Positions 17,355-36,340 are shown, counted from the stretch's first letter. The stretch: 42,630 nucleotides of DNA from Pseudonocardiaceae bacterium (GCA_025924655.1 JAICHZ010000001.1:1-42630); one strand, 5' to 3'. Numbers and translations are program-made. The notes: generated from the sequence alone by a model not told the origin.

Positions 17355-17364
17355 TCATGTGGCG

Positions 17365-17763
17365 TCAGGACCAGCCCACGTCCACCGTCACTTCGGGGGT
17401 GCGGCGCAGCGTGTTTGTGACGTAGCACAGCCGCTCCGCCACAGGCGCCAGCCGGCGCAGGCCGTCCGCGTCCGGCGCGTCGGCCCGCGCGGAGATCCGG
17501 ATCGCGGAGAAGCTCGGCCCGTCGTAATCGCCGGTCGCCCGTACCTGCAGCCCGGTCAGCTCGACGCCCCGCTTGCCGGCTGAGTAGGCCATTGCCAGCG
17601 TGAAGCAGGCTGCGATGGAGGCAAGCAGCAGCTCGGTGGGCTGCGGGCCCTGGTCGGTGCCACCGACCGACTCCGGCTCATCAACGATCAGCTCGAAGCG
17701 CCCGGCAGATACCCGGCAGCGCAGCCCCCCGTCCCATGTCGCATCCACCGAACGGGTGCTCAC
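17365..17763 (-). CDS. OsmC/Ohr-family protein
   Basis: The protein has 132 aa. GTDQGPQPTELLLASIAACFTLAM and ERLCYVTNTL are typical OsmC-family segments. Confidence 0.85.
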   Translation of the reverse strand: MSTRSVDATWDGGLRCRVSAGRFELIVDEPESVGGTDQGPQPTELLLASIAACFTLAMAYSAGKRGVELTGLQVRATGDYDGPSFSAIRISARADAPDADGLRRLAPVAERLCYVTNTLRRTPEVTVDVGWS

Positions 17764-17879: not shown

Positions 17880-18230
17880 ATGACTGTTACCTGGTCCGGT
17901 ACCGGCGAGCGGGTCGCGGCACTGTCGTGCTGTGCCGGCTGCCGGGTGGATCCGGCGCTGCGCCGCCACCACGACCGGCTGCTGACCGTCGAGTCCGACG
18001 TCGACGAGCTGCTCGAGCTCATCGAGCTGGCAGTGACCTGGGGTGAGTTGAACTACTGCGGCGTCAGTGTCGTGCCGCCCGGGCAGTGGCTCGAGTTCGC
18101 CGCCTGCCACAAGTGGCGAGACCCGGACCGGGCGGCGCGAATCTTCAGTGTGGCCACCGACATCGCGCTGCGGACCGGCCGGCGCGAGACGGCCTACTCG
18201 CTGCCTGGTGAGGTCGCAACTGCCAGCTGA
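17880..18230 (+). CDS. hypothetical protein
   Basis: An internal ATG of ORF 17736..18230 is preceded by AAGGAGG about 8 nt upstream. The 116-aa product (MTVTWSGTGERVAALSCCAGCRVDP...) has no motif I recognise. Confidence 0.5.
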   Translation: MTVTWSGTGERVAALSCCAGCRVDPALRRHHDRLLTVESDVDELLELIELAVTWGELNYCGVSVVPPGQWLEFAACHKWRDPDRAARIFSVATDIALRTGRRETAYSLPGEVATAS

Positions 18231-18243
18231 GGGGGACAGCACG

Positions 18244-19233
18244 TCAGGAGCGCCCGAGTCGGGTGACGTCGTCGACGGCCAAGTCGAGGACGGTGGCGGA
18301 GGCACTCCCGACCCGCAGCGCAAGCTTCCCCGAGTCATCGATTCGACCCACTACGGCCGCGGACAACCCTCGGTCCAGGAACGGTTGCGCGCAGTCTGCC
18401 TCCCGACCGGCCGGGGCGCAGAGCAGGAACCCGAAGCTGGGGAAGCAAGTCAGCCAGGCCGCCAACCTGACCCCTGAGGGCACTGGCACGGCATCCACGT
18501 CGAGTACGACGCCGTGGCGACCCCACTCCAGCAGCATCGCCAGCGACCCGACCAACCCGGCCATGCTGATGTCCTTAGCCGCCACGCACGCGCCGGACTC
18601 GGCGAGCCTGGCGAAGAGCCGCACGTCCCCGGCGCACTGCGACCCACGCTTTTCGAAGGCACCGAAGAACGGGAAGTCCGGGCGCATCCGGCCATCCAGC
18701 GCGGCGGCCACAAGCAGGCTCTGCCCGGCCCGCACCCGAGTCACCGACAGTGCCTGCCCGCTCGTCGTGCCGACGCCGAACGCCGAGACCGCGGGTTGCC
18801 CGTGGTGCAGCGTGAGGTGCCCGCCGAGGATCGGCACGTCGTAGAGCTCGCCCGCCCGCCGCATTCCGAGCAGCACCGAGCGAGCCACCTGCTCGGAACT
18901 GACGATCGTGTCTACGATGCCCAGCGGCAGTGCGCCCATCGCGGCCAGATCGTTGACGTTGGTGAGCACCGCGGCGAAGCCGGCGCCGTACGGGTCCGCG
19001 GCCACGAACGGCGGCCACAGCGCCTCACCGCAGGCCACCACCTGGCCGCCCAGCGCGGCCACCGCTGCGCCGTCGTCACCCGGGCCGGAGATCCAGTCAC
19101 CCGGTCCCAGTACCTCGCTGACCAACCCAATCGCCGCCTTGCCACGCAGCCCGGGATGGGCCCGCAGGGTCTGCACCAGCTCGGCCAGCGCGGCCGGTGC
19201 ATCGGCCCGTACCGCCGCCGTCGTGTCGGCCAT
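18244..19233 (-). CDS. AIR-synthase-related (PurM/ThiL/HypE superfamily) protein, probably sll0787 family
   Basis: GPGDDGAAV and AVLTNVNDLAAMGALP are the PurM-superfamily N-domain motifs, and DISMAGLVGSLAMLLE lies in the C-domain. The protein has 329 aa. Confidence 0.85.
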   Translation of the reverse strand: MADTTAAVRADAPAALAELVQTLRAHPGLRGKAAIGLVSEVLGPGDWISGPGDDGAAVAALGGQVVACGEALWPPFVAADPYGAGFAAVLTNVNDLAAMGALPLGIVDTIVSSEQVARSVLLGMRRAGELYDVPILGGHLTLHHGQPAVSAFGVGTTSGQALSVTRVRAGQSLLVAAALDGRMRPDFPFFGAFEKRGSQCAGDVRLFARLAESGACVAAKDISMAGLVGSLAMLLEWGRHGVVLDVDAVPVPSGVRLAAWLTCFPSFGFLLCAPAGREADCAQPFLDRGLSAAVVGRIDDSGKLALRVGSASATVLDLAVDDVTRLGRS

Positions 19234-19259
19234 CGCCGCCTCCGTCCGTCGTCGTTTCC

Positions 19260-19283
19260 GATAGTAGGTGCTCGCCCACTATC
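19260..19283. promoter_or_regulatory. inverted repeat in the divergent AIR-synthase-like / comA intergenic region
   Basis: GATAGTAGG-N6-CCCACTATC has arms complementary at 8/9 positions. It lies in the 68-bp gap between two divergently transcribed cluster genes. It is unusually AT-rich for this DNA. Confidence 0.35.
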
Positions 19284-19301
19284 TGATCTAACATCGAGGC
19301 C

Positions 19302-20084
19302 GTGCGACCGCCGAGGTTCCTCGAGCTGCCCGCCCGCAGCGGCAAGCCCCGCGCCACCGGGCTGACGCACGTGCTGGACACCGGGGTGCCGCCTACCACC
19401 GCGGCCGCCGTGTTGGCCACCGGCGCTGGGTACGTCGACGTGTGGAAGACCGGGTGGGGGACCGCATACATCGACCCTGGCCTACCGGAGAAGGTGCGAT
19501 TGCTGGCCGAGACCGACGTCGCGGCGTGCCTCGGCGGCACCCTGCTCGAGATCGCCTGGGCGCAGGGGCGGGCCGAGGAGTGCCTGGCCTGGGCGGACGA
19601 GGTCGGCTTCCGCTACGTCGAGGTCTCCCGCGGGACCGTGCCGATGAGCCTGGCCGACAAGCACCACCTCGTCGGGCTGGCCGCCGGCCGGTTCGTCGTG
19701 CTCGCCGAGGTCGGGTCCAAGGACCCGGGCGAGCAGCCGACGCCGGCGCAGTGGCGGGCCGAAGCGCAGGCTGACCTCGCCGCCGGCGCGCACCTGGTGG
19801 TCACCGAGGGGCGGGCGAGCGGCACCGTCGGCACCTTCGATGCCACCGGGCGAGTCCGCGAGGATGTAGTGGCCGCGGTGGTGGACGGCGTCGGGTTGGA
19901 GCACGTGATCTTCGAGGCTCCCCGGCTGGAGCAGCAGGCCTGGTTTATCCGCCGGTTCGGACCCGAAGTCAACCTCGGCAACGTAGGGCTGGAGCAGCTG
20001 ATGACGGTGGAGACGCTGCGGCTGGGGCTGCGCTCTGACACTTTCCGCTGGGACAGCGCTGTGGTCGGGACGCTGGTGCCGTGA
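19302..20084 (+). CDS. comA: (2R)-phospho-3-sulfolactate synthase (ComA family)
   Basis: The match to ComA extends end to end: KPRATGLTHVLDTG, YVDVWKTGWGTAY, GGTLLEIAW, YVEVSRG, VLAEVGSKD, VVTEGRASG, VIFEAP, VNLGNV, VETLRLGLRSDTF. Confidence 0.9.
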   Translation: MRPPRFLELPARSGKPRATGLTHVLDTGVPPTTAAAVLATGAGYVDVWKTGWGTAYIDPGLPEKVRLLAETDVAACLGGTLLEIAWAQGRAEECLAWADEVGFRYVEVSRGTVPMSLADKHHLVGLAAGRFVVLAEVGSKDPGEQPTPAQWRAEAQADLAAGAHLVVTEGRASGTVGTFDATGRVREDVVAAVVDGVGLEHVIFEAPRLEQQAWFIRRFGPEVNLGNVGLEQLMTVETLRLGLRSDTFRWDSAVVGTLVP

Positions 20085-20959
20085 TGGCGGTGAACCTCGT
20101 ACCCGGTCGCTACCGGGGCGTCGCGGTGGCCACTGTGTCTGGGCCACTGGACGAGGGGGCGCTGCGCGCACATTTTCTCGGCCGGGAGGCCTACCGCCGC
20201 ACCCGGTTCGTCGTCGTGTGCGCCGGCGAGCGCACTGCGGTGCTGCGGGTCGCCAAGGCTTCACAGACCGAGCTGTTCAGCCCCATCGTCGAGCTGGAGG
20301 TGCTGGCCGGACCGAAGGAGTGCGTATTCCTGCACCGGCCCGACGTGGATACCGCGATCCCCTCCGCGCTGGCCGCGACCGCGGTCGCTGACGCACCCGG
20401 TGCCCGGGCCGTGGTCGTGCGCGGTCGGTACGAACACGTCAACTTCATCCTCAACCCGCGCCCACGCCGGGTGGTCGTGCGCGAGGTGGTCCCACCGGAG
20501 CCGGCCAAGCTGTTCGACCAAGCCAAGCGGGTGCTCGCGGTCACTGAGGATCTGCCCCCGCTGGAGCTGGTGCCTGAGGTGGTGGACCTCACGGAGGTGG
20601 CCAGCGCGCACCCCGCCGCGCACTACCTGCTGCCCTGCCGGGGTTCCGGCGTCACCGTCGCCGGGGCCAAGGTGTCCTATCTGGACGAACGTCCGCCGCT
20701 GGCGGGCTGGACGCTGCTCGGCTGCGAGCGATCCCGCCAGATCCACCGCTGGTGCTACGGCTGCGAGCCATCCACCGTGGACTTCTGCCCGAAGCGGGAT
20801 CCGGCGCCCGGCACGTTGACCAAATGCTGCCTGCAGGAGGAGCACGTCGAGGCCGGCGATGGCTGGGTGTCGGTGCCGTGGGGATCGTCGCTCGAGCAGG
20901 TCCGCGAGGCGCTGACCGGGCTCGCCCGCGCGCTGGAGCCGGCGTGGGCACCCGGCTGA
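20081..20959 (+). CDS. hypothetical protein with a Cys-rich C-terminal region
   Basis: This 292-aa ORF has a GTGA overlap with the comA stop and a 16-nt overlap with the next gene. The C-terminus reads LLGCERSRQIHRWCYGCEPSTVDFCPKRDPAPGTLTKCCLQEEH. I recognise no family. Confidence 0.7.
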   Translation: MMAVNLVPGRYRGVAVATVSGPLDEGALRAHFLGREAYRRTRFVVVCAGERTAVLRVAKASQTELFSPIVELEVLAGPKECVFLHRPDVDTAIPSALAATAVADAPGARAVVVRGRYEHVNFILNPRPRRVVVREVVPPEPAKLFDQAKRVLAVTEDLPPLELVPEVVDLTEVASAHPAAHYLLPCRGSGVTVAGAKVSYLDERPPLAGWTLLGCERSRQIHRWCYGCEPSTVDFCPKRDPAPGTLTKCCLQEEHVEAGDGWVSVPWGSSLEQVREALTGLARALEPAWAPG

Positions 20960-22299
20960 CCGACTCGGCCAGCTACGCCCACCTGTGGGGCACCGACGAG
21001 CTGGCCCGGGTGTTCGACGAGCCAGCGCGCCTGCAGTGCTGGCTGGACATTCTCGTCGGGCTAGCCAGGGTGCAGGCCCGCCTCGGGATCGTGCCGGCGG
21101 ACGCCGCCGAGGCGATCGCCACCGGCGCCCAGGTGGCGTCGCTCGATCTGGACTACGTCGCCGAGCAGACCCGGCTCACGTCGCACTCCACGCTGGGCCT
21201 GATCCGTGCCCTGCAGCGGGTGCTGCCGGAGCACGCTCGGGAGTACGTCTACCTCGGAGCCACCGTGCAGGATCTCACCGACACCTGGTTCGGGGTGGTG
21301 CTACGCGAGGTCGGCAGCCTGGTCTGGCGCGAGCTGCGCGCCCTGGAGGCCGACCTGCTTGACCTGGCCCGGACTCATCGGGAGACCGTTCAGGTAGGAC
21401 GGACTCATGGCCAGCCTGGCGCGCCGGTCACCTTCGGGTTCAAGGCGGCGTCCTGGGCCGACGAGGTGCGGCGGCACCTGCAGCGGCTGCGCGAGGGGCG
21501 CTCCAGGTGGTTGGTCGGGCAGCTGGGTGGCGCGGTGGGGGTGCTGGGGTTCTTCGAGGCGGACGCAACGGCGCTGCGGCGGCAGTTCTGCGCCGAGGTC
21601 GGGCTCGCTGATCCCGTCATCTCGTGGCTCACCTCGCGCGACCGGCTTGCCGAGTTCGGGCACCTGCTGGCCATGGTGTGCGGCACCCTGGCCCGGATCG
21701 GCGGCGAGGTCTACGAGCTGCAGCGCCCGGAGATCGGAGAGCTGGCAGAGCCCACCACGGCCACCGCGGTCGGCAGCATCACCATGCCGCACAAGCGGAA
21801 TCCGGAGAGCAGTGAGCACCTGGACACCCTGGCCCGGCTGGCCCGGTCCTCGGCCGCAGTGCTGACCGAGGGTATGACCCAGCTGCATGAGCGCGATGGT
21901 CGCGGATGGAAGGCCGAGTGGGTGGCGCTGCCCGAGGTATGCCTGCTGACCGGCGCCGCACTGCGGACCGCACGCACGATCGTCAGCGGCCTGGAGGTAC
22001 ATGCTGGCGTGATGGCGGCGAACCTGGTCCGGCACGGGGACACGCTGGCTTCCGAGCGCGTGCTGGCCGGGCTTTCGACGCGGCTGGGCAAGCACCAGGC
22101 GCAGGCGGCGCTGCAGGAGGTACTGGCCGGAAGGCCGGCGGACCTCGCGGCAGCGCTGGCGCAGCGCGGGCTGGCCTCGGTCGAGGACGTCCGCGGCTGG
22201 ATCAGCCGGTCGCCGGTGGCCACGGCGGGAGAGATGGTCGACGCGGTACTGGCTCGCGCCGCCGCGGCCCGGGCCGGCGAGCCGGAGACCTGGCCATGA
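20944..22299 (+). CDS. fumarate-lyase-superfamily enzyme, adenylosuccinate-lyase / CMLE-like
   Basis: The start is taken at GTG 20944 within ORF 20752..22299. The signature loop is GSITMPHKRNPESSE. TVQVGRTHGQPGAPVTFG and YLGATVQDLTD are typical of the ASL/PcaB branch. Confidence 0.85.
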   Translation: MGTRLTDSASYAHLWGTDELARVFDEPARLQCWLDILVGLARVQARLGIVPADAAEAIATGAQVASLDLDYVAEQTRLTSHSTLGLIRALQRVLPEHAREYVYLGATVQDLTDTWFGVVLREVGSLVWRELRALEADLLDLARTHRETVQVGRTHGQPGAPVTFGFKAASWADEVRRHLQRLREGRSRWLVGQLGGAVGVLGFFEADATALRRQFCAEVGLADPVISWLTSRDRLAEFGHLLAMVCGTLARIGGEVYELQRPEIGELAEPTTATAVGSITMPHKRNPESSEHLDTLARLARSSAAVLTEGMTQLHERDGRGWKAEWVALPEVCLLTGAALRTARTIVSGLEVHAGVMAANLVRHGDTLASERVLAGLSTRLGKHQAQAALQEVLAGRPADLAAALAQRGLASVEDVRGWISRSPVATAGEMVDAVLARAAAARAGEPETWP

Positions 22300-23279
22300 T
22301 CCCACCGCGGTTCCCACTCGCGGTGCTGCCTACGCCGCTGGTGCGGGCACACCGGCTGGAGGCGGTGCTGGGACGGGGCCGGGTGCAGCTCAAGCGCGAC
22401 GACCTGGCCGGGTTCGCAGTCGGCGGCAATAAGACCCGGCCGCTGGAGTACCTGCTGGGACAGGCCCTGGCCGACCGGTGCGACGTGCTGGTCACCGGCG
22501 GCGGCCCCGGCTCGAACTTCTGCCCGGCCGCCGCCGTGGCCGCCCGTGCCGCAGGCTTGGACTGCGAGCTGATCATCTGTGGCGACAACGACCGGGGCGA
22601 CGGGTACGGCTCAGCCAACCTGGCCATCGCGGCGGCTGCCGGCGCCTGCATCCGGCCAACCGGTGACCAGGCGCGCGAGGCCTTGGACGCCGCGATCGCC
22701 GAGCGCGCCGCCGACCTGACCGCGGCCGGCCGGCGGCCGTTCCCGGTGCCGCGCGGGGGGTCCACCCTGCTGGGCGCGGTGGGGTTCGCGGTCGCGGCGG
22801 CCGAGTTGGCGGGTCAGCTCGACCAGTCTGAGCTAGCGGGCGGCGCCGAACCCGCGCTGGTGGTACTGCCCGTCGGCTCCGGTAGCAGCTGCGCCGGGCT
22901 GCTGGCCGCCGGGCCGCCGTGGCCGGTGCTGGGGGTATCGGTCAGCCGGCCACTGCAGGAGATCACCAGCAAGGTGCACGCGCTGGCGCAGGCGTGCGCC
23001 CGGCTGCTGGGCTATCCGCCACCCCGCCCGAGGGGGCTGGAGATCGTTGACGCCCGCGGGCCCGGCTTCGGTATCGCGTCTCAGGCCGACCGGGCCGCCG
23101 CGTGCCTGGCGCTGCACACCGAAGGCCTACTGCTCGACGACACCTACGGCGCCAAGGCGTTCGCGGTGCTGACTCAGCGGGCCGGCGACGTCCGGGGACC
23201 CGTGGTGTTCTGGCACACCGGCGGTGTGGTGCCGGCCGTGGCCGCGCTGCGCCAGCGGATATCGGGAGGACGGATGTGA
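22296..23279 (+). CDS. PLP-dependent enzyme of the D-cysteine desulfhydrase / ACC deaminase family
   Basis: An ATGA overlap links it to the upstream stop. LPTPLVRAH, KRDDLAGFAVGGNKTRPLEYL (PLP lysine), PRGGSTLLGAVGF, LPVGSGSS, LLLDDTYGAKAF and FWHTGG align along E. coli DcyD as I remember it. Confidence 0.85.
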   Translation: MIPPRFPLAVLPTPLVRAHRLEAVLGRGRVQLKRDDLAGFAVGGNKTRPLEYLLGQALADRCDVLVTGGGPGSNFCPAAAVAARAAGLDCELIICGDNDRGDGYGSANLAIAAAAGACIRPTGDQAREALDAAIAERAADLTAAGRRPFPVPRGGSTLLGAVGFAVAAAELAGQLDQSELAGGAEPALVVLPVGSGSSCAGLLAAGPPWPVLGVSVSRPLQEITSKVHALAQACARLLGYPPPRPRGLEIVDARGPGFGIASQADRAAACLALHTEGLLLDDTYGAKAFAVLTQRAGDVRGPVVFWHTGGVVPAVAALRQRISGGRM

Positions 23280-24793
23280 CGCCAAGACGCGAGGAGGGGC
23301 CGCCGCAGACCGGGGCGGCGCGTGAGCTGGTGGAGTCCGGCTTCACACTGGAAAACGCGGACGCCTCATTCCTGCACCGCGGCCTGAACCTGGCCGACCT
23401 GGCGCACGTGTTGGACCTGGCCCGGCGCGGCATCGTGCCGGTGCCGGCTCAGCGCGAGCTGCTGGCGTTGCTGCTCGAGGTGTACGAGGTCCCCGCTGAC
23501 GAGTTCCCCTACGACCCCTCCTACGGCGAGCCGTACAACTCCCGCGAGCACTACTTCGTTTCCCGGATCGGCGACGTCGCAGGGTGGTTGCATGCCGGGC
23601 GGCCGCGGCGGGAGGCGGCTCGGATCGCGCTGCGGCTGCACCTGCGCCGCCAGCTCGTCGAGCTGGTCGCCGAGGCTGCCGCCTTCGCCCGGGTGGCCGT
23701 CGACCGGGCTGACGAGCACATCGAAACCGTGATGCCCGACCAGACTTACCTGCAGCAGGCCCAACCCTCGACGTTCGGGCACTACCTGCTGTCCTTTGTG
23801 TACTCGACGCTGCGGGATGCCCGCCGACTACTCGAGGAGCTCGACTGGGTGGACTGCAGCCCGGGCGGCGCTGGCTGCGTCAACGGCACCCGGCTGCTCT
23901 CTGACCGCAGCTTCATCGCCGACGCGCTGGGGTTCCGTGGAGTGATCGAGCACACCCGCGACGCGATGTGGCAGATCGACGGCCTGATCCACGTACTGGC
24001 CACCGCGGCCAGCCTGCTGTCCGGGTTCAGCAAATTGGCTGAAGACCTGGAGATCTGGTCGAGCAGCGAGTTCGACTTCGTTGATCTGGCAGACGCCTAC
24101 ACTCGGGCCAGCGTGCTCATGCCGCAGAAACGCAACCCGTACTCGCTGGCCATCGTCCGCGGTGCCTCCGGGATCGTCATCGGGCGGCTGGCCGGGTTCC
24201 TCGCGGTGGCCAAGAGCCCATCTGCTCGCAGCGACAACCTGATTTTCGCCTACGGTGAGGTGCCGCGGGCGCTCGACTTGTGCCTGCGGATCACCCGGTT
24301 GATCACTGGGGTGGTGCGCACGATGCGGGTCAACGCCGAGCGGATGGCCGAGCAGCTGCGCGCCGGCTACACCCAGTCCACCGACCTCGCCGAGCACCTG
24401 GTGCAGGTCTGCGCAGTGGACTACCGCACCGCTTACGTCGTCGTCGGACGCACTGTGCGGGCGGCCAGCCGGGCCGGGATCCCCGGCATGAAGATCACCG
24501 GCGAGATGCTCGACGACGCCGCCCGCGAGCACACCGGACGATCCTGGGGACTGGCCGGGATGGACCTGTCCGAGGTGCTCGACCCCTGGCAGATAGTGCT
24601 TTCCCGGCATGCCCAGGGCGGTGCCGCGCCAACGGCAGTGCACCGCATGACAGGGAACTTACGAAGGTCGCTGGACGAACTGGACGCCACGGTCAGCGAG
24701 CGGGCCGCGGCCCACGACCGCGCCGAGAGTTCGCTGCTGGCGGCGGCCAAGGCAGTGGTTGAGCAGGACGGTCAGCAGGAGGGTGCACCGTGA
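23276..24793 (+). CDS. fumarate-lyase-superfamily enzyme, argininosuccinate-lyase-like
   Basis: A GTGA overlap links it to the upstream stop. The signature loop is SVLMPQKRNPYSLA, and MPDQTYLQQAQPSTFGHYL is ArgH-like. Confidence 0.85.
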   Translation: MTPRREEGPPQTGAARELVESGFTLENADASFLHRGLNLADLAHVLDLARRGIVPVPAQRELLALLLEVYEVPADEFPYDPSYGEPYNSREHYFVSRIGDVAGWLHAGRPRREAARIALRLHLRRQLVELVAEAAAFARVAVDRADEHIETVMPDQTYLQQAQPSTFGHYLLSFVYSTLRDARRLLEELDWVDCSPGGAGCVNGTRLLSDRSFIADALGFRGVIEHTRDAMWQIDGLIHVLATAASLLSGFSKLAEDLEIWSSSEFDFVDLADAYTRASVLMPQKRNPYSLAIVRGASGIVIGRLAGFLAVAKSPSARSDNLIFAYGEVPRALDLCLRITRLITGVVRTMRVNAERMAEQLRAGYTQSTDLAEHLVQVCAVDYRTAYVVVGRTVRAASRAGIPGMKITGEMLDDAAREHTGRSWGLAGMDLSEVLDPWQIVLSRHAQGGAAPTAVHRMTGNLRRSLDELDATVSERAAAHDRAESSLLAAAKAVVEQDGQQEGAP

Positions 24794-26193
24794 GCGTGTT
24801 GCCGGAGCAGATCAGGGCGGTCAACATCGGGTTGCCGATGTTCGCCGATGCCCTTCGGGCGCAGGGCGTGGCGGTGGAGCATGTCGACTGGCGGATCCCT
24901 GCCGGTGGCGACCTGGCCGCGGTGGCCACGCTGAGCCGGCTCTACGGGGATCATGGGAGCGCTATCGACGGAGCCAACGCCGAGGTGGTGCGGCGGCTGG
25001 ACTCCGGCGTGCCGCAGCTTGTCGAGGTGTCCACGGTGGCGCAGGCCGTGCCCGCAATGGTGGGTCGCACCCTGCTGCACTGCGGCCCGGCGATCGACTT
25101 CGGGCAGGTGTGCGACCCGCTGCGCCGCTCGATGCGGGCCGCCGTGGTCGCCGAGGGCTGGGCGGCTGACGTCGAGGAGGCGCAGCGGTTGCTGGCCAGC
25201 GGCGATGTGGCGCTGGAGCCGGCCAACCACCACCAGGCGGTGGTACCGATGGCCAGCGCGATCGGCCCGACTGCACCGGTCTTCGTGGTGGCTGACCGCG
25301 AGGGCGGCACCCGGTCCTACGCGCCGGTCAACCAGGGCCCCGGCGAGGTGGCCTGGTTCGGCCGGGACACTGACGCGGCGGTCGAAAGGTTGAGGTTCCT
25401 GCGCGATGTCGCCGGTCCGGCGCTGACCCGGGTCCTGAGCTCGGCCGGCCCACTAGACATCCTCAGCTTGGCCGCACAGGGCGTCGCGATGGGCGACGAC
25501 CTGCACATGCGCACCCAAGCGGCGACCAACCTGCTTGTCCGAACGTGGCTGCCCCAACTCGCTGAGCTGCCGGACCAGCAGCGCGGCGGGATGGCCCGCT
25601 TCCTGTCCGGCAACCACCTCTTCTTCCTCACGCTGGCGATGGCCGCAGCCAAGGCGCTCACTCTCTGGGCCGAGGAGGTGAGCGGGTCAAGCGTCATCAC
25701 GACCATGTCCCGCAACGGGACCACGTTCGGGATCAAGCTTGCGGGCTCGCCGGAGTGGCACATCACCGCTGCCCCGCCCATCACTGACGCGTTGTACTAC
25801 TCCGGCTACGGGCCCGAGGACGCCGCCCCGGATATCGGCGACTCCGCCGTGCTGGAGCTGGTAGGACTGGGTGGACCGGCGGCCGCCGGCTCGCCAGCCG
25901 TGGCGGCGTTCCTCGGTGGCTCGATGGCCGACGGCAAGCGGGCCACCGAGGCGTTCCGGCAGATATGCGTCGGCACCAGCAGCCGCTTCACGTTGCCTCC
26001 GTTGGACTTCAGCGGCACGCCGGTCGGCGTGGACGTGCGGCGGGTGGTGGAGCTGGGGATCACCCCGCAGATCACCACCGGTATCCTGCACTGCTCCTTG
26101 GGCGTCGGACAGATTGGCGCCGGGGTGGCCACCGCGCCGCTGGAGTGTTTCACCGAGGCGCTGGCCGCCCTGGACGCTCGCCTGGTGCGGTGA
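24790..26193 (+). CDS. DUF1116 protein (YlbE/AllG-like, oxamate carbamoyltransferase subunit family)
   Basis: A GTGA overlap links it to the upstream stop. LLHCGPAIDF, LEPANHHQAVVPMASAIGPTAPVFVV and NQGPGEVAWFG resemble the YlbE/DUF1116 family. Confidence 0.8.
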   Translation: MSVLPEQIRAVNIGLPMFADALRAQGVAVEHVDWRIPAGGDLAAVATLSRLYGDHGSAIDGANAEVVRRLDSGVPQLVEVSTVAQAVPAMVGRTLLHCGPAIDFGQVCDPLRRSMRAAVVAEGWAADVEEAQRLLASGDVALEPANHHQAVVPMASAIGPTAPVFVVADREGGTRSYAPVNQGPGEVAWFGRDTDAAVERLRFLRDVAGPALTRVLSSAGPLDILSLAAQGVAMGDDLHMRTQAATNLLVRTWLPQLAELPDQQRGGMARFLSGNHLFFLTLAMAAAKALTLWAEEVSGSSVITTMSRNGTTFGIKLAGSPEWHITAAPPITDALYYSGYGPEDAAPDIGDSAVLELVGLGGPAAAGSPAVAAFLGGSMADGKRATEAFRQICVGTSSRFTLPPLDFSGTPVGVDVRRVVELGITPQITTGILHCSLGVGQIGAGVATAPLECFTEALAALDARLVR

Positions 26194-26927
26194 GGGCACT
26201 CGACGTCGGCCTCGGGGCCCGGAAGGTGCTCGGCGATCTCGCCGAGGGCCGGGTGGTCGCGGTCTACTCGCGGGCTGCCTACTTGCGGTTTCCGGCCGGA
26301 CTGTTAGCGGTGACGTCCGCGTGGGCGCCAGCCGGTCCGCTGAACCTGCGGTGCCCGGCGTTACCGGTACTGCGGCCGGGCGCTGCGGTGTGGACGGACG
26401 GTTCCCGGCTTTCGGGGCCAGGATGGGCGGTTGCACTAGAGGCACCGACCTGGGTGGGCGAGCTGCCCCCTCCCCCGACAGTTGCCCTGCCCTGCGCCGC
26501 CGCCGTGCCTGACCTGACTGGGCTGGCCGCACGTCTGGGCGGGCGCGGGCCGGGGCTTACCCCGGCCGGAGACGACGTGCTGGCCGGCGCGCTGCTTGCG
26601 GCACGGGCCCGCTGCGGGCCGGCGGCGGAACCCGAGTTATCCGCGGTTGCTGCCTCCGTACGCACCACCGACCCGGCCCTGGCGTTCCTGGCCTGGGCGG
26701 CCCGCGGTCAATGCATCGAACCAGCGCACACTGTGCTGCTGGCGATGACCCGCCGCGATGAGGCCCGGGCGCACGCTGCGGCGACCCGGCTGGTCACGAT
26801 CGGAGCCTCATCCGGTGCGGCGCTACTTGCCGGGTTGAGGCTCGGGCTGGGCGACCGGGATCAGCGGCCACGCAGGGAAAACCGGACCACCTGGGTCGGC
26901 CGACGCCCCGGGTTGGACCAGCGGTAG
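26190..26927 (+). CDS. DUF2877 protein (YlbF/AllH-like)
   Basis: A GTGA overlap links it to the DUF1116 stop. GRGPGLTPAGDDVLAGALLA matches the GxGxGLTPxGDD motif I associate with DUF2877, and IGASSGAALLAG lies near the C-terminus. The last ~25 aa overlap the convergent regulator and are probably read-through tail. Confidence 0.65.
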   Translation: MRALDVGLGARKVLGDLAEGRVVAVYSRAAYLRFPAGLLAVTSAWAPAGPLNLRCPALPVLRPGAAVWTDGSRLSGPGWAVALEAPTWVGELPPPPTVALPCAAAVPDLTGLAARLGGRGPGLTPAGDDVLAGALLAARARCGPAAEPELSAVAASVRTTDPALAFLAWAARGQCIEPAHTVLLAMTRRDEARAHAAATRLVTIGASSGAALLAGLRLGLGDRDQRPRRENRTTWVGRRPGLDQR

Positions 26928-27535
26928 CGGTGGTCGATCGGGTAGTGCAGAGCGTCGCCCCGGTGCAGTGTGTACTGCTCGCCGGCCACCTCAACGGCCA
27001 GCGTGCCGTCGAGCACGAGCAGCAGCTCCTCGCCCGGGTGCTGGGTGACCTCAGCGCCGGATTCGGCGCCCGGCGCCAGCGTTGCTATCTCCCCGGCGGT
27101 CCGGAAGCGCTCCCGGGGCCCGCCAATGCCGGCGAGCTCCACACCTGGAGCCGGTGCAGTCAGCGTCGGTCGCCCGGTGACTGGAGTGTGCGCGGCCACC
27201 TGCACGGGACCGGACGCAGCGTCGACGAAGTGTCCGATCGGACGGCCCAGCGCGGCAGCCAGCTTCAGCAGCGTGGTGATCGTCGGAACCATGTCGTTGC
27301 GCTCGACCTTGTGGATCGCGGCGGCTGACACGTCGGCGCGGCTCGCCAGCTGCTGCAGTGAAAGCCCAAGCTGCTGGCGCAGCTCATGAACCTTGGCGCC
27401 GATGGCGCCGACGATCGGCTCCCAATCCGGCACTGGGCCAACGCCCACTTGGCCGCCACGGTCACCCGCCAGCCCGTTGCGCTCCGGCCTGGCATCCGCG
27501 GAACCCGGGCCGCCTGTGGTCGCCGACCTGGCCAT
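26861..27535 (-). CDS. XRE-family HTH plus cupin-domain transcriptional regulator
   Basis: The HTH is LGLSLQQLASRADVSAAAIHKVERNDMVPTITTLLKLAAALG. The C-terminal cupin is HPGEELLLVLDGTLAVEVAGEQYTLHRGDALHY. The start is taken at Met9 (27535), which has AGGAGA 6 nt upstream. Met1 (27559) has no SD. Confidence 0.85.
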   Translation of the reverse strand: MARSATTGGPGSADARPERNGLAGDRGGQVGVGPVPDWEPIVGAIGAKVHELRQQLGLSLQQLASRADVSAAAIHKVERNDMVPTITTLLKLAAALGRPIGHFVDAASGPVQVAAHTPVTGRPTLTAPAPGVELAGIGGPRERFRTAGEIATLAPGAESGAEVTQHPGEELLLVLDGTLAVEVAGEQYTLHRGDALHYPIDHRYRWSNPGRRPTQVVRFSLRGR

Positions 27536-27546
27536 GAGTGATCTCC

Positions 27547-27574
27547 TTGACAGTGACATTGCGTTCAGTATGAT
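27547..27574 (+). promoter_or_regulatory. candidate sigma-70-like promoter for the flavoprotein/DsrE/nitrile-hydratase operon
   Basis: TTGACA (27547-27552), a 16-nt spacer, then TATGAT (27569-27574), about 75 nt upstream of GTG 27650. An imperfect palindrome overlaps it: GTGA.TGCGTT-N10-AACGCA.TCAC (27553-27587). Confidence 0.35.
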
Positions 27575-27649: not shown

Positions 27650-28993
27650 GTGCCGCGCAAGACGGTGATCATTGGTGGGGGGGCCGCTGGTCTGGGCGCC
27701 GCCGGTGGTGTGAAGGCGGCCGATCCTGGAGCCGACGTCGTCGTCTACACCGAATACGAGGATGTTGCTTACAGCCCCTGCGGCATCCCCTATGTGCACG
27801 GCAAGGAGATCCCCGACTTCGAGCGGCTGTTCCTGGCCGGCAAGCAGACCTACATCGACGCAGGCATCGATGTGCACTACAGCACCGCGGTCACCGCGCT
27901 GGACACCGCGCACAAGATGGTCACGGTTGTTGGCGAGGGTCGGGTCTCCTACGACACCGTGGTCGTGGCCACCGGCTTCAACTATGCCGATCCCGGGGTG
28001 CCGGGCGGCGACCTCGGGGGCCTGTACTACGTCAAGAATATTCGCCGGGCCATGGAGTGGGACAAGGTTCTCGACTCGGTGAAAAAGGCCGTCGTAGTCG
28101 ACGCCTCGCCGCTCGGGGTGGAGATGGTCACCGCGCTCGCCCAGCGCGGCATCGAGACTCACCTGGTTGACCCATACCCGTGGCCGCTGGCTGAGATGGT
28201 CGACCCGGACATCATGGCGCCGGTCGAGGAGTCGTGGGGCGAGCTAGGCGTCGTCGCGCACTACAACAGCACGTTGGAGGCTTTCCTCGGCGACCACAGC
28301 GGCCACGTCCGTGCGGTGCGGACCTCCGAAGGTGAGCTGGAAGCCGAGATCGTCGTGGTGTGCACACACAAGGAGCCGAACAACACCCTCGCCGCGAAGG
28401 CCGGCCTGAAGCTCGGCTCGACCGGCGGCGTGATCGTCGACGCACGGATGTCCACCTCGGCGCCCCACGTCTTCGCCGCCGGCGACTGCGTCGAGATCCC
28501 GCACGGGCTGACCCGGGTTCCACTGCAGGGGCTGACCGGCAGCCACGCTTACGCTCAGGGCAAGGTCGCTGGCGCCAACGCCGGCGGCGGTAACCGGGCT
28601 TACCGCGCGGTGTACGTGCCGTGGGGTACCCCGGCTGGCAAGTGGGTGATCGGGGGTGCCTCCTTCGGCGAGACCACTGCCACCGCGTTGGGCATCCCGT
28701 ACGTGGTGGGGACCGCTCAGGGCATTTCGAGGGCCCGGTACTACCCGGGCGTCAAGCCGGTCAAGGTCAAGCTGCTCGCCGAGCCGGGCAGCCTGCGGCT
28801 GATCGGCGCCCAGATGGTCGGCCAAGAGGGAATCAAAGAGCGAGCCGACTTCCTCGCGATGGCGGTTAAGTTCGGCTTCACCCTGGGCGACCTTGCGACG
28901 ATGGAGAACGTCTACTCGCCGGCGATCGGGGCGCTCAACGAGCCCATCGTCCTGGCCGCACAGAAGGCCCTCGACTCACTCAAGAAGCGCTGA
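27650..28993 (+). CDS. pyridine-nucleotide-disulfide oxidoreductase of the CoA-disulfide reductase / NADH oxidase type
   Basis: It has an N-terminal GGGAAG Rossmann motif and a single redox Cys in YSPCGIPY. A second dinucleotide fold (KKAVVVDASPLGVEM) and FAAGDC follow. The C-terminal dimerisation region is LIGAQMVGQEGIKERADFLAMAV. Confidence 0.85.
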   Translation: MPRKTVIIGGGAAGLGAAGGVKAADPGADVVVYTEYEDVAYSPCGIPYVHGKEIPDFERLFLAGKQTYIDAGIDVHYSTAVTALDTAHKMVTVVGEGRVSYDTVVVATGFNYADPGVPGGDLGGLYYVKNIRRAMEWDKVLDSVKKAVVVDASPLGVEMVTALAQRGIETHLVDPYPWPLAEMVDPDIMAPVEESWGELGVVAHYNSTLEAFLGDHSGHVRAVRTSEGELEAEIVVVCTHKEPNNTLAAKAGLKLGSTGGVIVDARMSTSAPHVFAAGDCVEIPHGLTRVPLQGLTGSHAYAQGKVAGANAGGGNRAYRAVYVPWGTPAGKWVIGGASFGETTATALGIPYVVGTAQGISRARYYPGVKPVKVKLLAEPGSLRLIGAQMVGQEGIKERADFLAMAVKFGFTLGDLATMENVYSPAIGALNEPIVLAAQKALDSLKKR

Positions 28994-28994
28994 C

Positions 28995-29252
28995 ATGTCG
29001 TTTTTCCAGTGGCTACGCCGCAACTCCGAGCATTACCTGATGATCGCGGCGCACGAGCAACTGGCGCAGCAGTACTCCGGGCGGGCCCCGCGCCCGCCGC
29101 GCGGCCTCAAGGAGTTGTTCTGGCTGCGTCTGTTCGTCCCCATTTACCGGGCACTGCCCTGGCTGGTGCGGCAGCGGATCATGCAGTCCATGCCGGGCAG
29201 TCACCGCCAACAATGGGCGCCGCCTCCCCGGACGCAGAACCCGGCGGTGTGA
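28995..29252 (+). CDS. small hypothetical protein (85 aa)
   Basis: Its ATG lies 1 nt after the flavoprotein stop. [27 protein letters not shown]...[18 protein letters not shown] has one amphipathic or hydrophobic stretch. I recognise no family. Confidence 0.5.
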
Positions 29253-29286: not shown

Positions 29287-29790
29287 ATGAAAGGAAGTCT
29301 CCCGGTGGCACAGATCGTGGGTGAAAGGGTTAGCAAGGGCGACGCGATCGTCGACTACGAGGAAAAAGTATTCGAGGACATTCAGGCCGAGCCGGGCGAG
29401 AAGGCGTACATCCTCATGCACACAGTGCCATTCGAGGGCTCGGTAGGTCTGGTCAATATGCTGACGGCGACCCGGATCAACCGCAAGGGGTTCGACACGC
29501 ATCTGGTGCTTTACGGCCCGGGATCACTGATGGCGGCGGCTACCCGCGGCTATCCGAAGGTCGGCGATGAGCCGTTCCCCGGTGCGCTGAGCTATAACAA
29601 GCAGCTGCAGACGTTCATGAACGAGGGCGGGCACGTCTACGCCTGCCGGTTCTCGGCCGCCGCGCTCTACGGCATGCGCGAGATCGACATGATGGAGGGC
29701 GTGAAGCCGATCAACCCGCTCGATGTCCTGGATTCGGTGCTGACGGCCCGCCGGCAGAATGCGCTGATCATGCAGACTTGGACCGTCTGA
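29287..29790 (+). CDS. DsrE/DsrF-fold protein, plausibly MSMEG_0572/Sll0783 (NitB) family
   Basis: The protein has 167 aa. [40 protein letters not shown] and [16 protein letters not shown] give a DsrE-like pattern with a conserved Cys. An alternative start is GTG 29305, with AAGGAAG upstream. The family assignment is from memory only. Confidence 0.65.
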
Positions 29791-35616: not shown

Positions 35617-35660
35617 CTGGTTCGCGCTCCCGTCGATATGCATTATGAGAAGCGACGTAC

Positions 35661-35710: not shown

Positions 35711-36340
35711 TTGACCGGACTGGACGCGGAGCGGGACGACGCCCTGCGCCGGGCACGGGCCCGGTGGCGGGCCGCCGAGGACCGACTGTTCCCGGTGGTG
35801 CTCGTCGACCCGGACACCTACCGGCGGGCGTTGTATGTCGTGGGCCTGCTTCTCGAGCAGCTGCGGGCGAATACCACTTCTCTCGACCAGCTGCTCGGCT
35901 TGGACGTCGACCCTGCGCCGTTGCTCTCGACACTGCCGGCCGGCTCCGTGTGTGACGACGGGGACCGGCTGACGCTGGAGGCGGCGTTTGCGGTACGGGA
36001 CAGGGAGCTCGCAGCGGCCGCTAAGCGCGGCCAACGAGCTGCGGCCATCGCGTTGGCGCACGCCGCCGGCGCGACCTGGGTGGACCTCGAGGGATCTTGG
36101 GAAGCTGTCCTGAGCACCGGGGGGCGGCACACCGAGATGCATTTGCCCACCGCCCGGGCGTTGGTCGCCACGATCGATCCCTACTCCGGAGATGGCCCGC
36201 ACCGGCTGGAGCTGGTCGTGCTGGACGGCGACACCGGCACACCAGTCGAGACGACCGACCGCGACCGGGCCTTTGCTGACCGGGCGGAGTGGCTGGCGCA
36301 GCGGCAGCGGTGGCGCGCGGATATCGAGGAAGGTAGGTAG
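35711..36340 (+). CDS. hypothetical protein leading the radical SAM / GNAT operon
   Basis: This 209-aa ORF has a TTG start and ends 2 nt before the radical SAM ATG. I recognise no motif. Confidence 0.6.
   Translation: MTGLDAERDDALRRARARWRAAEDRLFPVVLVDPDTYRRALYVVGLLLEQLRANTTSLDQLLGLDVDPAPLLSTLPAGSVCDDGDRLTLEAAFAVRDRELAAAAKRGQRAAAIALAHAAGATWVDLEGSWEAVLSTGGRHTEMHLPTARALVATIDPYSGDGPHRLELVVLDGDTGTPVETTDRDRAFADRAEWLAQRQRWRADIEEGR

Follow-up and report, generated by a model that had tools for sequence, protein, structure and literature searches.

Coenzyme M (CoM) biosynthesis has been described in Xanthobacter, where the published pathway comprises five genes, xcbA-E, and XcbA performs the final reduction (PMC9457059); an earlier note on the DNA analyzed here had counted four genes, xcbB1-E1. 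All bacterial uses of CoM that are known by experiment lie in epoxide metabolism (PMC9457059, PMC11507031). In methanogens, CoM acts as a redox thiol that is paired with a CoM-disulfide reductase (PMC7278568). The xcb genes of Nocardioides JS614, an ethene degrader that uses CoM, occur in the order B-A-D-E-C, as do those of Mycolicibacterium NBB4 and Methylocystis, and one xcb copy in NBB4 lies on another plasmid than etnE.

The window, a 42.6-kb stretch of DNA (42,630 nucleotides) from a Pseudonocardiaceae bacterium, carries at 19302-24793 on its plus strand what orthology identifies as a complete five-gene CoM biosynthesis cassette, xcbB-A-D-E-C. A Pfam search of open reading frames found all five genes at these coordinates, adjacent genes show start/stop overlaps of 1-16 nt at every junction, as the earlier note had observed, and the public gene calls on a 99.95% identical contig, GCA_025936415.1, give an identical gene model. 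In reciprocal best-match comparisons, each of the five window proteins pairs with its counterpart among Xanthobacter XcbA-E (37-45% identity) and among the JS614 Xcb proteins (42-52% identity), with no cross-assignment among the five, which bears out the earlier proposal of an xcb-type cassette. B-A-D-E-C is the normal actinobacterial order, and the window cassette contains no insertion; the arrangement once taken for a reordering is the standard one in JS614, NBB4 and Methylocystis, and the supposed inserted orphan gene is xcbA. Our assignment of the CoM pathway rests on orthology with the Xanthobacter pathway, and the steps given below are predicted accordingly.

The first gene, xcbB (19302..20084), encodes a phosphosulfolactate synthase of the ComA family (PF02679, E = 1e-76) that is 51% identical to JS614 XcbB and 38% identical to Xanthobacter XcbB and that would, by orthology, catalyze step 1, the addition of sulfite to PEP (PMC9457059). 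The ArgH-like lyase XcbC (23276..24793; Lyase_1 and ASL_C2) would then remove phosphate from phosphosulfolactate to give sulfoacrylate in step 2. In step 3, cysteine would be added by XcbD (20944..22299; Lyase_1), a PurB/PcaB-like lyase of the aspartase/fumarase superfamily that is a putative 3-sulfopropionyl-cysteine synthase and is 45-52% identical to the Xanthobacter and JS614 XcbD proteins. The letters of these two lyases, swapped in the earlier reading, follow from NCBIfam scores and ortholog identity. XcbE (22296..23279; PALP), a PLP enzyme with a DcyD/ACC-deaminase fold that retains the GGNKxR lysine motif, would carry out C-S cleavage and decarboxylation of the adduct to yield sulfoethanethioaldehyde in step 4. 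Finally, reduction of this thioaldehyde to the thiol, giving 2-mercaptoethanesulfonate, would be step 5, catalyzed by XcbA (20084..20959, with an alternative GTG start at 20081), a 292-aa [2Fe-2S] reductase of the DUF7714/XcbA family (PF24830, E = 4.6e-95). XcbA scores 339 bits against the NCBIfam model NF052538, 'XcbA family', well above the cut-off of 150. Among its cysteines C186, C215, C236, C249 and C250, four are found in all 83 homologues and C215 in 99% of them. The AlphaFold2 model of XcbA has a pLDDT of 92.4, and its comparison with the PDB yielded no fold match.

We considered whether the lyases and the PLP enzyme might be ordinary PurB, ArgH and DcyD paralogues that lie beside a ComA gene by chance, in which case there would be no CoM pathway. 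The ArgH-like protein scores just above the ArgH equivalog cut-off (285 vs 279.5 bits), and public records label such genes argininosuccinate or adenylosuccinate lyase. However, for both lyases and the PLP enzyme the top NCBIfam model is the Xcb model, by a wide distance: 418 bits for XcbC against NF052535 vs 285 for argH, 577 bits for XcbD against NF052536 (cut-off 600) vs 248 for purB, and 223 bits for XcbE against NF052537 vs 179 for CuyA and 155 for DcyD. Since the XcbE and XcbC proteins of JS614 likewise score below the strict NCBIfam cut-offs, we do not count the sub-cut-off Xcb scores in the window against membership. The active-site loops are also unlike their ArgH and PurB equivalents: window XcbC has the loop TRASVLMPQKRNPY that is common to all XcbC proteins where ArgH has GTSSIMPQKKNP, and window XcbD shares the XcbD loop GSITMPHKRNPE. 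Besides both loops, the PLP lysine of XcbE and all five cysteines of XcbA are kept, and over 60 loci preserve the five genes together. Chance paralogy is therefore extremely improbable. Of the residues that are invariant in transferase-linked cassettes, 79-89% are kept in XcbB, XcbC and XcbD, and only 53% in XcbE and 60% in XcbA, the most diverged members, with XcbE the least conserved of all.

For comparison with other genomes, we sampled 80 GTDB loci, of which 69 are of the window type (class II), with full flanks in 38. The coupled operon does not end at 24793 and consists of seven genes: xcbB-A-D-E-C is followed by an allG-like gene (DUF1116; 24790..26193, plus strand; PF06545, E = 3.8e-69), translationally coupled to xcbC by a GTGA overlap and found in 22 of the 38 full-flank loci, and by an allH-like gene coupled to allG (DUF2877; 26190..26927, plus strand; PF11392, E = 1e-20), which is also gene-called in GCA_025936415.1. 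An FdrA/AllF-like subunit, the predicted partner of AllG and AllH, is encoded on the minus strand at 33077..34645 (Ligase_CoA and CoA_binding; 407 bits against NF004760, cut-off 433) and is 54-57% identical across phyla. It lies between the genes for an MSMEG_0565-family GT4 glycosyltransferase (31857..33080, minus strand; TIGR04047, 355 bits, cut-off 260), which overlaps fdrA by 4 nt, and a carbamate kinase (34642..35643, minus strand; TIGR00746, 344 bits, cut-off 358; NF009007, 275 bits, cut-off 266). The E. coli transcarbamylase requires all three of its AllF, AllG and AllH subunits (PMC11326118). The transcarbamylase of the window is split, and because allG and allH are coupled to xcb and their obligate partner allF sits in the glycosyltransferase-allF-carbamate kinase operon, the two operons are tied together.

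The conserved gene set, with the cassette inside it, spans approximately 20 kb from the OsmC gene (17365) to the GNAT gene (37916) and recurs in the 69 actinobacterial species-level loci. Its left edge is an OsmC-family peroxiredoxin gene (17365..17763, minus strand; PF02566, E = 4.6e-20), at which synteny with one of the sampled loci (L001) begins exactly; OsmC is present in 37 of the 38 full-flank loci and is 52-58% identical in Alphaproteobacteria. Between OsmC and xcbB lie a gene for a 116-aa conserved protein with no assigned function (17880..18230, plus strand; gene-called in GCA_025936415.1), recognized by alignment through its motif HHDRLL...LAVTW.EL.Y, present in 26/38 loci and without a match in Pfam or NCBIfam, and, divergent from xcbB, an AIR-synthase-like gene of the sll0787/MSMEG_0567 C-terminal type (18244..19233, minus strand; AIRS and AIRS_C; best model TIGR04049, 252 bits, under the cut-off of 321; 19/38 loci). 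Downstream of the operon, an HTH (XRE)-cupin regulator recognized by Pfam (26861..27559, minus strand; 27/38 loci, 41-49% identity in Alphaproteobacteria) is followed on the plus strand by a CoA-disulfide-reductase/Nox-family flavoprotein (27650..28993; Pyr_redox_2 and Pyr_redox_dim; TIGR03385, 233 bits, under the cut-off of 579), which is 56-62% identical across phyla. Its one active-site cysteine (YSPCGIPY) aligns to the cysteine of the NoxA-3 and CoADR structures, and it is a candidate reductase of a CoM disulfide or persulfide. Always after it comes a conserved 85-aa protein (28995..29252, plus strand; tblastn matches in 42 loci, including one of 50% identity in Methylocystis), and then an MSMEG_0572/Sll0783-family, DsrE-like protein (29287..29790, plus strand; TIGR04044, 227 bits, cut-off 110); the flavoprotein and the MSMEG_0572-family protein each occur in 32 of the 38 full-flank loci, as does the trio.

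Nitrile hydratase beta (29858-30523; TIGR03888, 178 bits), alpha (30520-31116; TIGR01323, 305 bits) and accessory (31113-31457; TIGR03889, 74 bits) genes follow on the plus strand, all scoring above cut-off. Beyond the carbamate kinase gene lie genes for a conserved protein of approximately 170-209 aa with no assigned function (35711..36340, plus strand), which had no match in family searches, resembles weakly an fdrA neighbor in Methylocystis and occurs in 18/69 class II loci (13/38 with full flanks), an MSMEG_0568-family radical SAM protein (36343..37446, plus strand; TIGR04043, 389 bits, cut-off 304) and an MSMEG_0567/Sll0786-family GNAT acetyltransferase (37443..37916, plus strand; TIGR04045, 95 bits, cut-off 68; 28 loci). 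Together with the glycosyltransferase and AIR-synthase-like genes, the radical SAM and GNAT genes are of the Nit1C/gpr type. A SARP-AAA-TPR protein (37891..41094, minus strand; BTAD, AAA_16 and TPR), found in 12/69 class II loci and in N. aquiterrae, and in actinobacterial loci only, is a possible regulator of the cluster.

The same gene set occurs in Methylocystis, Ensifer, Sphingobium, Ruegeria and Hoeflea at 45-65% identity, and this conservation between phyla leads us to reject chance adjacency. The cluster, with its xcb module, has probably been laterally transferred. In some lineages the nitrile hydratase is swapped for a nitrilase, one nitrile-hydrolyzing enzyme always being present. 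The clusters of Ruegeria and Hoeflea lack XcbE, so the end product could differ, and in two Microbacteriaceae MAGs XcbA accompanies the flavoprotein although the other four xcb genes are absent within 10 kb, so XcbA may have a wider role. Given the conservation across phyla, the product plausibly serves its neighbors, as the earlier note proposed for the surrounding cluster, but this applies only to the part of the window from 17.4 to approximately 38-41 kb; leftward of it, the P450, methyltransferase and GGDEF genes accompany xcb in 0-1 of 69 loci and are not linked to it.

Alternatively, the CoM made by the cassette might feed the classical metabolism of epoxides or alkenes; the genes for EtnE or XecA and the downstream enzymes would then lie at other places in the genome, and the neighbors would be unrelated. 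The uses of CoM demonstrated by experiment in bacteria are all of that kind (PMC9457059, PMC11507031), EtnE-linked xcb clusters occur in some Pseudonocardiaceae and Geodermatophilaceae MAGs (L070-L080), and the xcb copy and etnE of NBB4 reside on different plasmids. Nevertheless, as the earlier note had stated, genes for an epoxyalkane:CoM transferase, 2-KPCC or an alkene monooxygenase are absent from the 42.6-kb window: in tblastn searches, the Xanthobacter XecA/C/D/E and Nocardioides EtnE and EtnA-D queries matched only the CoA-disulfide-reductase-like flavoprotein gene (23-32%; 23% identity to 2-KPCC), and Pfam scans of the other ORFs in the window detected neither Meth_synt_2 nor a di-iron monooxygenase. 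EtnE lies within 10 kb in 0 of the 69 window-type loci and 0 of 7 further loci from other lineages, and in a concatenated XcbBADEC tree the window-type cassettes form their own clade, separate from the EtnE-linked cassettes. In our plasmid collection, EtnE orthologues are restricted to JS614, NBB4 and Xanthobacter and do not include the Methylocystis plasmids. Together with the neighborhood shared between phyla and the coupling of allG and allH to xcbC, these observations make a role in epoxide metabolism quite unlikely.

A possible, though still unlikely, alternative is that the locus works as a biosynthetic gene cluster and assembles a larger metabolite to which xcb supplies a sulfonate block (CoM, sulfoacrylate or 3-sulfopropionyl-cysteine). 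The glycosyltransferase, GNAT, AIR-synthase-like, radical SAM and AllFGH/carbamate kinase proteins would glycosylate, acylate or carbamoylate the sulfonate, for example into a mycothiol- or bacillithiol-like thiol. The glycosyltransferase is a GT4 enzyme with MshA and BshA among its weaker matches, the GNAT protein recalls the logic of MshD, an ATP-dependent AIR-synthase-like enzyme is present, the glycosyltransferase-AllF pair and the carbamoyl phosphate supply are conserved, a SARP regulator adjoins, and the reductase and OsmC are compatible with a new low-molecular-weight thiol. Yet counterparts of the ligases and deacetylases MshB/C or BshB/C were not found, Ruegeria and Hoeflea keep xcb, OsmC, the reductase, the glycosyltransferase and AllF even though radical SAM, GNAT and AIR-synthase-like genes are all absent within 10 kb, and the constant nitrile-hydrolyzing enzyme is left without an explanation.

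That enzyme has a place in a cyanide/nitrile nitrogen-scavenging cycle with CoM as carrier, which we regard as very unlikely. Cyanide would attack a CoM disulfide or an activated intermediate (e.g. sulfoacrylate) to form a nitrile or thiocyanate, nitrile hydratase (nitrilase in other lineages) would hydrate this to an S- or C-carbamoyl compound, the AllFGH-like enzyme would phosphorolyze the latter to carbamoyl phosphate, and carbamate kinase would yield ATP, NH3 and CO2, with OsmC and the flavoprotein setting the thiol/disulfide state. Cyanide assimilation in Pseudomonas needs Nit1C (PMC11049912, PMC7815647), Nit1C of M. smegmatis is induced under nitrogen starvation (PMC6039565), and AllFGH and a catabolic carbamate kinase are a known ATP- and NH3-yielding pair (PMC11326118). 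The exchange of nitrilase and nitrile hydratase also fits, as do the in-cluster alpha subunits of Ruegeria, Hoeflea and N. aquiterrae, which are 71-73% identical to that of the window. HypF and HypE, moreover, convert S-carbamoyl and S-cyano groups into one another with the help of carbamoyl phosphate and an enzyme of AIR-synthase fold. However, the scheme is wholly inferential, and we know of no precedent for its proposed intermediate. Nitrilase-type clusters still have AllF and AllG, which the scheme does not need, and the radical SAM, GNAT and glycosyltransferase genes are left over.

We think it probable that the cassette is a complete CoM pathway that forms a module of the conserved, transferred cluster, and that its thiol-sulfonate is dedicated to that system and not to epoxide metabolism. 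We infer that the product is CoM or a very close thiol-sulfonate serving the cluster rather than alkene catabolism; the roles of all neighboring genes are likewise put forward conditionally. In the simplest view, OsmC would reduce peroxides at the expense of the thiol-sulfonate, whose oxidized form the flavoprotein would return to the thiol with NAD(P)H. The gpr cluster of M. smegmatis (MSMEG_0565-0572) gives peroxide resistance (PMC6039565). This thiol-peroxidase view leaves the radical SAM, GNAT, AIR-synthase-like, glycosyltransferase, AllFGH/carbamate kinase and nitrile hydratase genes without a function, and canonical Nit1C clusters operate without xcb. The thiol-sulfonate may also shuttle cyano or carbamoyl groups between the nitrile hydratase and the transcarbamylase-kinase pair. 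The position of the cassette among stress, nitrile and nitrogen-scavenging genes, without genes for alkene degradation, points to an undescribed use of CoM.

The coenzyme M (CoM) cassette consists of five open reading frames on the + strand at 19302-24793, exactly where the earlier note had placed it, and each start overlaps the preceding stop by 1-16 nt. The first gene, xcbB (19302..20084), encodes a ComA-type phosphosulfolactate synthase (PF02679, E 1e-76) that is 51% identical to XcbB of Nocardioides JS614. The product of xcbA (20084..20959), a 292-aa protein matching DUF7714 (Pfam E 4.6e-95), had been taken for an orphan; NCBIfam assigns it to the XcbA family (NF052538, 339 bits; cut-off 150). 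The PurB-like Lyase_1 protein encoded by xcbD (20944..22299; 45-52% identity) scores 577 bits with the NCBIfam XcbD model and 248 bits with purB, and the PALP, DcyD-fold PLP enzyme encoded by xcbE (22296..23279; 38-45% identity) is matched best by XcbE at 223 bits, followed by CuyA at 179 and DcyD at 155. Finally, xcbC (23276..24793) encodes an ArgH-like protein with Lyase_1 and ASL_C2 domains whose best NCBIfam match is XcbC (418 bits versus 285 for argH). Each of the five proteins pairs with its proper counterpart in Xanthobacter (37-45% identity) and in JS614 (42-52%). An Rfam search found no RNA element near the cassette.

The only bacterial CoM pathway to have been reconstituted biochemically is that encoded by xcbABCDE of Xanthobacter autotrophicus Py2. 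This published pathway has five genes, xcbA-E (PMC9457059), and the four-gene route given in the earlier note corresponds to a previous description. As in strain Py2, all five families are present in the window as one operon, and the XcbC and XcbD loops, the XcbE lysine and the XcbA cysteines are shared. The window differs from Py2 in its apparently chromosomal location and actinomycete host, in the extension of its operon by allG and allH, in the lack of adjacent xecA-E genes (EaCoMT, 2-KPCC and dehydrogenases) or an alkene monooxygenase, and in its gene order, which is B-A-D-E-C rather than A-B-C-D-E. This order does not reflect a reordered cassette with an insertion, as had been proposed, but equals that of other actinobacteria: B-A-D-E-C is also found on the JS614 plasmid pNOCA01, where etnE and an alkene monooxygenase adjoin xcb, and in Mycolicibacterium chubuense NBB4, as well as in Methylocystis.

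The lyases and the PLP enzyme are of the xcb type rather than housekeeping paralogues, in agreement with the earlier assignment, since the Xcb models outscore purB, argH and DcyD and the XcbC and XcbD loops match those of Xanthobacter. The XcbC loop TRASVLMPQKRNPY is common to every XcbC, including that of Xanthobacter, and the XcbC-specific pattern TR[AS]S..MPQKRNPY is shared by the window and Xanthobacter proteins, whereas solved ArgH structures have GTSSIMPQKKNP at this position. The XcbD loop GSITMPHKRNPE (GSITMPHK) also occurs in XcbD of Xanthobacter and JS614, and the nearest solved relatives of XcbD are trans-aconitate decarboxylase and PcaB, not PurB. XcbE retains the PLP-lysine motif GGNKxR. 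Residues that are invariant in transferase-linked cassettes are retained at 79-89% in XcbB, XcbC and XcbD and at 53-60% in XcbE and XcbA; XcbE is the most diverged member of the cassette. Three window proteins miss the NCBIfam 'exception' cut-offs (XcbC 418 vs 575, XcbD 577 vs 600, XcbE 223 vs 450). Because JS614, a bona fide CoM user, also misses those for XcbC (332 vs 575) and XcbE (313 vs 450), these cut-offs delimit a Xanthobacter-like subgroup and not a function, so the low scores of the window proteins do not argue against a role in the CoM pathway.

XcbA of the published pathway was described as a [2Fe-2S] protein with no known homologues (PMC9457059). We found that its relatives fill more than 2,700 protein clusters, and that the named ones among those listed are annotated as hypothetical or DUF7714. 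Five cysteines are conserved over 83 homologues, four of them in all and C215 in 99%. The AlphaFold2 model of XcbA is confident, and a Foldseek search of the PDB with this model turned up nothing meaningful (best E 2e-3, TM 0.2 or less), so that the fold offers no mechanistic insight.

By orthology, and with good confidence, all five steps of CoM synthesis can be assigned to the window genes. XcbB would form phosphosulfolactate (step 1), XcbC would eliminate phosphate to give sulfoacrylate (step 2), XcbD would add cysteine to sulfoacrylate (step 3), XcbE would release sulfoethanethioaldehyde (step 4), and XcbA would reduce this thioaldehyde to CoM (step 5). Consistent with the earlier observation that no CoM-using enzyme lies nearby, tblastn of the window with XecA/EtnE, 2-KPCC, XecD/E and EtnA-D detected no transferase, 2-KPCC or alkene monooxygenase; the only match, at 23-32% identity, is at 27.6 kb. 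This match is a flavoprotein (27650..28993, + strand) that we considered as a 2-KPCC and rejected, as it is 23% identical to that enzyme, has a single cysteine instead of CxxxxC and is a CoADR/Nox-family protein. Its single active-site cysteine, in YSPCGIPY, fits the pattern SxxxCG[IL]PY when aligned. Its score with the CoA-disulfide reductase equivalog model TIGR03385 is 233 bits against a cut-off of 579; by sequence, its fold and mechanism class appear to match those of CoA-disulfide reductase.

To define the neighbourhood in which the cassette occurs, we scanned for XcbA in one genome per GTDB species, which yielded 143 relatives, and kept 80 loci. Eleven of these (L070-L080) are of the classical type; EtnE is within reach in six of the 11, at 77-86% identity to JS614 EtnE, and several also have SDRs or 2-KPCC. 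The remaining 69 share the window's neighbourhood and come from Pseudonocardia, Actinomycetospora, Jatrophihabitantaceae, Microbispora, Sphaerimonospora, a Streptomyces and Microbacteriaceae. Named carriers of window-type clusters include Pseudonocardia asaccharolytica, P. spinosispora, P. endophytica, P. oceani, Actinomycetospora succinea and Microbispora hainanensis. None of these 69 window-type loci has an xcb-linked epoxyalkane:CoM transferase (EtnE was sought within 10 kb), 2-KPCC, SDR or alkene monooxygenase. In a neighbour-joining tree of concatenated XcbBADEC, window-type cassettes, including those of Methylocystis and other lineages, form one clade apart from the EtnE-linked ones. The etn clusters of JS614 and NBB4, which fall outside this clade, carry etnE, etnABCD, SDRs and CoA-transferases that the window lacks, and lack its OsmC, MSMEG_0572, AllFGH and carbamate kinase (CK), nitrile hydratase and Nit1C-type genes. 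A CoADR-family flavoprotein adjoins xcbB in the etn clusters too, although it is only 32% identical to that of the window.

Neighbour frequencies were counted in the 38 window-type loci whose flanks are complete. OsmC, encoded at 17365..17763 (- strand) in the window, is present in 37 of the 38; the trio of flavoprotein, 85-aa ORF and MSMEG_0572/Sll0783 protein (29287..29790, + strand) in 32; an HTH-cupin regulator in 27; a 116-aa ORF in 26; AllG in 22; the MSMEG_0567 GNAT protein (37443..37916, + strand) in 20; and an AIR-synthase-like gene in 19. The 85-aa ORF (28995-29252, + strand) stands behind the CoADR-like flavoprotein in 42 loci, including Methylocystis (50% identity), and the 116-aa ORF (17880-18230, + strand) has the motif HHDRLL...LAVTW.EL.Y; neither has a Pfam or NCBIfam family. 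Genes to the left of 17365 never co-occur with xcb, and it is precisely from the stop codon of OsmC onward that DNA synteny with the nearest MAG begins. On these same grounds we rejected the P450, methyltransferase and GGDEF genes (1-17 kb) as consumers of the product. The nearest named relatives of the window, whose GC content is 65-73%, are Pseudonocardiales MAGs. Positions 12139-30959 are 99.95% identical to NCBI contig GCA_025936415.1, to which an exact look-up of XcbA with an ATG start (P0001) also led; exact look-ups of the window's XcbA (GTG start) and XcbE returned no match. In two Microbacteriaceae MAGs (L063 and L065), XcbA lies between the flavoprotein and MSMEG_0572, with glycosyltransferase (GT), FdrA, CK, radical SAM and OsmC genes around it and no xcbB, xcbD, xcbE or xcbC within 10 kb. 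This arrangement hints that XcbA has some further function outside CoM synthesis, or that the pathway is split.

Several genes of the window score above the NCBIfam cut-offs for components of the Nit1C/gpr clusters (Sll0783-0787, MSMEG_0565-0572 and Pseudomonas nitBCDEFGH): MSMEG_0568 radical SAM (389 bits vs 304), MSMEG_0567 GNAT (95 vs 68), MSMEG_0565 GT (355 vs 260) and MSMEG_0572/Sll0783 (227 vs 110). The sll0787-family AIR-synthase-like protein is matched best by TIGR04049 (252 bits, cut-off 321). As judged from these matches, the GT, radical SAM, GNAT and MSMEG_0572 genes are members of the Nit1C/gpr cluster family. The window departs from this family in lacking the MSMEG_0569 flavoprotein, in adding xcb, OsmC, the CoADR-like reductase and AllFGH/CK, and in having a nitrile hydratase (beta, alpha and accessory subunits) in place of the nitrilase. 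Neither a Nit6803-family nitrilase nor a Pnap_2097 protein was found in the window or in the actinobacterial window-type loci. The Nit1C/gpr family has been linked to cyanide assimilation in Pseudomonas (PMC11049912) and, more broadly, to cyanide assimilation, nitrogen starvation and peroxide resistance, and its biochemistry is still called unresolved in papers from 2018 to 2024 (PMC6039565, PMC7815647, PMC11049912). The GlnR-box pattern GTnAC-N6-GnAAC is absent from the promoter regions of the cluster; no regulatory tie to nitrogen starvation was found. An imperfect inverted repeat, GATAGTAGG-N6-CCCACTATC, lies at about 19259-19282, in the 68-bp promoter region that separates xcbB from the divergent AIR-synthase-like gene, and a hairpin with a perfect 11-bp stem, GCGTAACAGTG-TCAGGA-CACTGTTACGC, lies at about 29803-29830 between the genes for MSMEG_0572 and nitrile hydratase beta; each is a candidate operator or terminator.

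The window also contains homologues of all four proteins of the E. coli allFGHK system, which comprises oxamic transcarbamylase and a catabolic CK (PMC11326118). The AllG and AllH Pfam domains are both matched, CK passes NF009007, and FdrA/AllF scores 407 bits against a cut-off of 433. Unlike in E. coli, the genes are split, with allG-allH translationally coupled behind xcbC and allF in a CK-allF-GT operon on the other strand, and there are no allantoin genes. From this comparison, AllFGH and CK of the window would be family relatives that are unlikely to share a substrate with the E. coli enzymes; since allantoin genes are missing, the substrate is presumably not oxalurate. AllF, AllG and AllH are all needed for activity in E. 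coli (PMC11326118). Given that allG and allH join xcbC while their partner allF resides in the other operon, this requirement would tie the xcb-allGH and CK-allF-GT operons to one another functionally.

Related clusters occur in other lineages. On a plasmid of Methylocystis iwaonis, OsmC-xcbBADEC lies beside the canonical Nit1C set (nitrilase, radical SAM, GNAT, AIR-synthase-like and Pnap_2097 genes), and the same region contains the flavoprotein/small ORF/0572 trio, DUF1116, GT-FdrA and a cupin regulator; the proteins of this cluster are 36-65% identical to those of the window. The nitrilase version is also found in Ensifer canadensis and Sphingobium chungbukense; the full canonical set with the Nit6803 nitrilase stands beside xcb in all three genera. 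Ruegeria and Hoeflea have the nitrile hydratase version, with AllG/H, AllF and CK, and the pattern is repeated in Nocardioides aquiterrae and one metagenome contig. The nitrile hydratase alpha subunits encoded in the alphaproteobacterial clusters share 71-73% identity with that of the window; the enzyme therefore belongs to the cluster and does not lie there by chance. The clusters of Ruegeria sp. THAF57 and Hoeflea sp. TYP-13 lack XcbE, with no xcbE between xcbD and xcbC (L090 and L091, about 12.2-12.4 kb). In the former, a Cys/Met-metabolism PLP enzyme adjoins allH and may stand in as a non-orthologous C-S lyase. Both clusters contain DUF1097 and CbiM, and JS614 also has a DUF1097 gene, beside etnABCD. 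The xcb-Nit1C clusters of S. chungbukense (L089) and metagenome 3300002461 (L093) are flanked by integrase, resolvase, Mu-type or IS110 transposase and toxin-antitoxin genes; these flanks and the plasmid location in Methylocystis are consistent with lateral transfer of the whole unit.

Other features of the window were recorded along the way. At 475-1152 (- strand), a single stop-to-stop frame holds Phd/YefM antitoxin and PIN toxin domains and is probably an overlapping toxin-antitoxin gene pair. A stretch of lower GC (60-65%) at 7534-9426 holds fragments of an FAD monooxygenase C-terminus, a P450 N-terminus and a DDE transposase; it probably represents a decayed insertion with no relation to the cluster. 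Two tandem Methyltransf_19 (PF04672) paralogues with about 84% DNA identity (13375-15138, + strand) adjoin a P450 and a PAS-GGDEF-EAL protein and are not conserved with the xcb cluster. A full-length match to the mycobacterial sRNA F6 (RF01791; 67.9 bits, gathering score 46) lies at 41329-41385 (- strand), just outside a SARP regulator gene, in this Pseudonocardiales genome.

With regard to the use of the xcb product, the tightest partners of xcb are a peroxiredoxin, OsmC, and a homologue of single-Cys NAD(P)H disulfide/persulfide reductases, and this association suggests a CoM-based peroxide or redox couple. There is precedent for such a couple in the CoM-disulfide reductase of methanogens (PMC7278568), and for a peroxide role in the peroxide-resistance phenotype of gpr (PMC6039565). 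More speculatively, nitrogen scavenging might use the thiol, or an intermediate of the xcb pathway, as a carrier of cyano and carbamoyl groups, because the constant members of the cluster also include an enzyme that hydrolyses nitriles and an enzyme pair that forms carbamoyl phosphate; this would leave several of its genes unexplained. We tentatively propose, at somewhat less than an even chance, that a Nit1C-related system for stress and nitrogen scavenging, widespread among soil Actinobacteria and among Alphaproteobacteria not growing on alkenes, has CoM or a closely derived compound as its hitherto unrecognised small-molecule partner. In such a system the compound would act as a dedicated redox or carrier thiol and work alongside an OsmC peroxidase, an NAD(P)H reductase of its own, an enzyme that hydrolyses nitriles and a transcarbamylase that forms carbamoyl phosphate.

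The biochemistry of the cassette is known and already covered by NCBIfam models; what is new is the context. In the literature that we searched, no paper joins phosphosulfolactate synthase with nitrilase, nitrile hydratase or OsmC, and none on Nit1C makes a link to CoM genes. A 2024 paper names methanogens and alkene-using bacteria as the only known sources of CoM biosynthesis genes (PMC11507031). In the present analysis, the full xcb pathway occurs in at least 69 actinobacterial species-level loci and in several Alphaproteobacteria, with no CoM transferase nearby and invariably in the company of the same partner genes. Public records still list XcbA as 'hypothetical' or 'DUF7714' and the lyases as ArgH or PurB. 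These results widen the likely distribution and role of the smallest organic cofactor, and they offer a chemical lead, a thiol-sulfonate, for the Nit1C/gpr clusters. If the proposal is true, it would give CoM a third biological role, after methanogenesis and epoxide metabolism.
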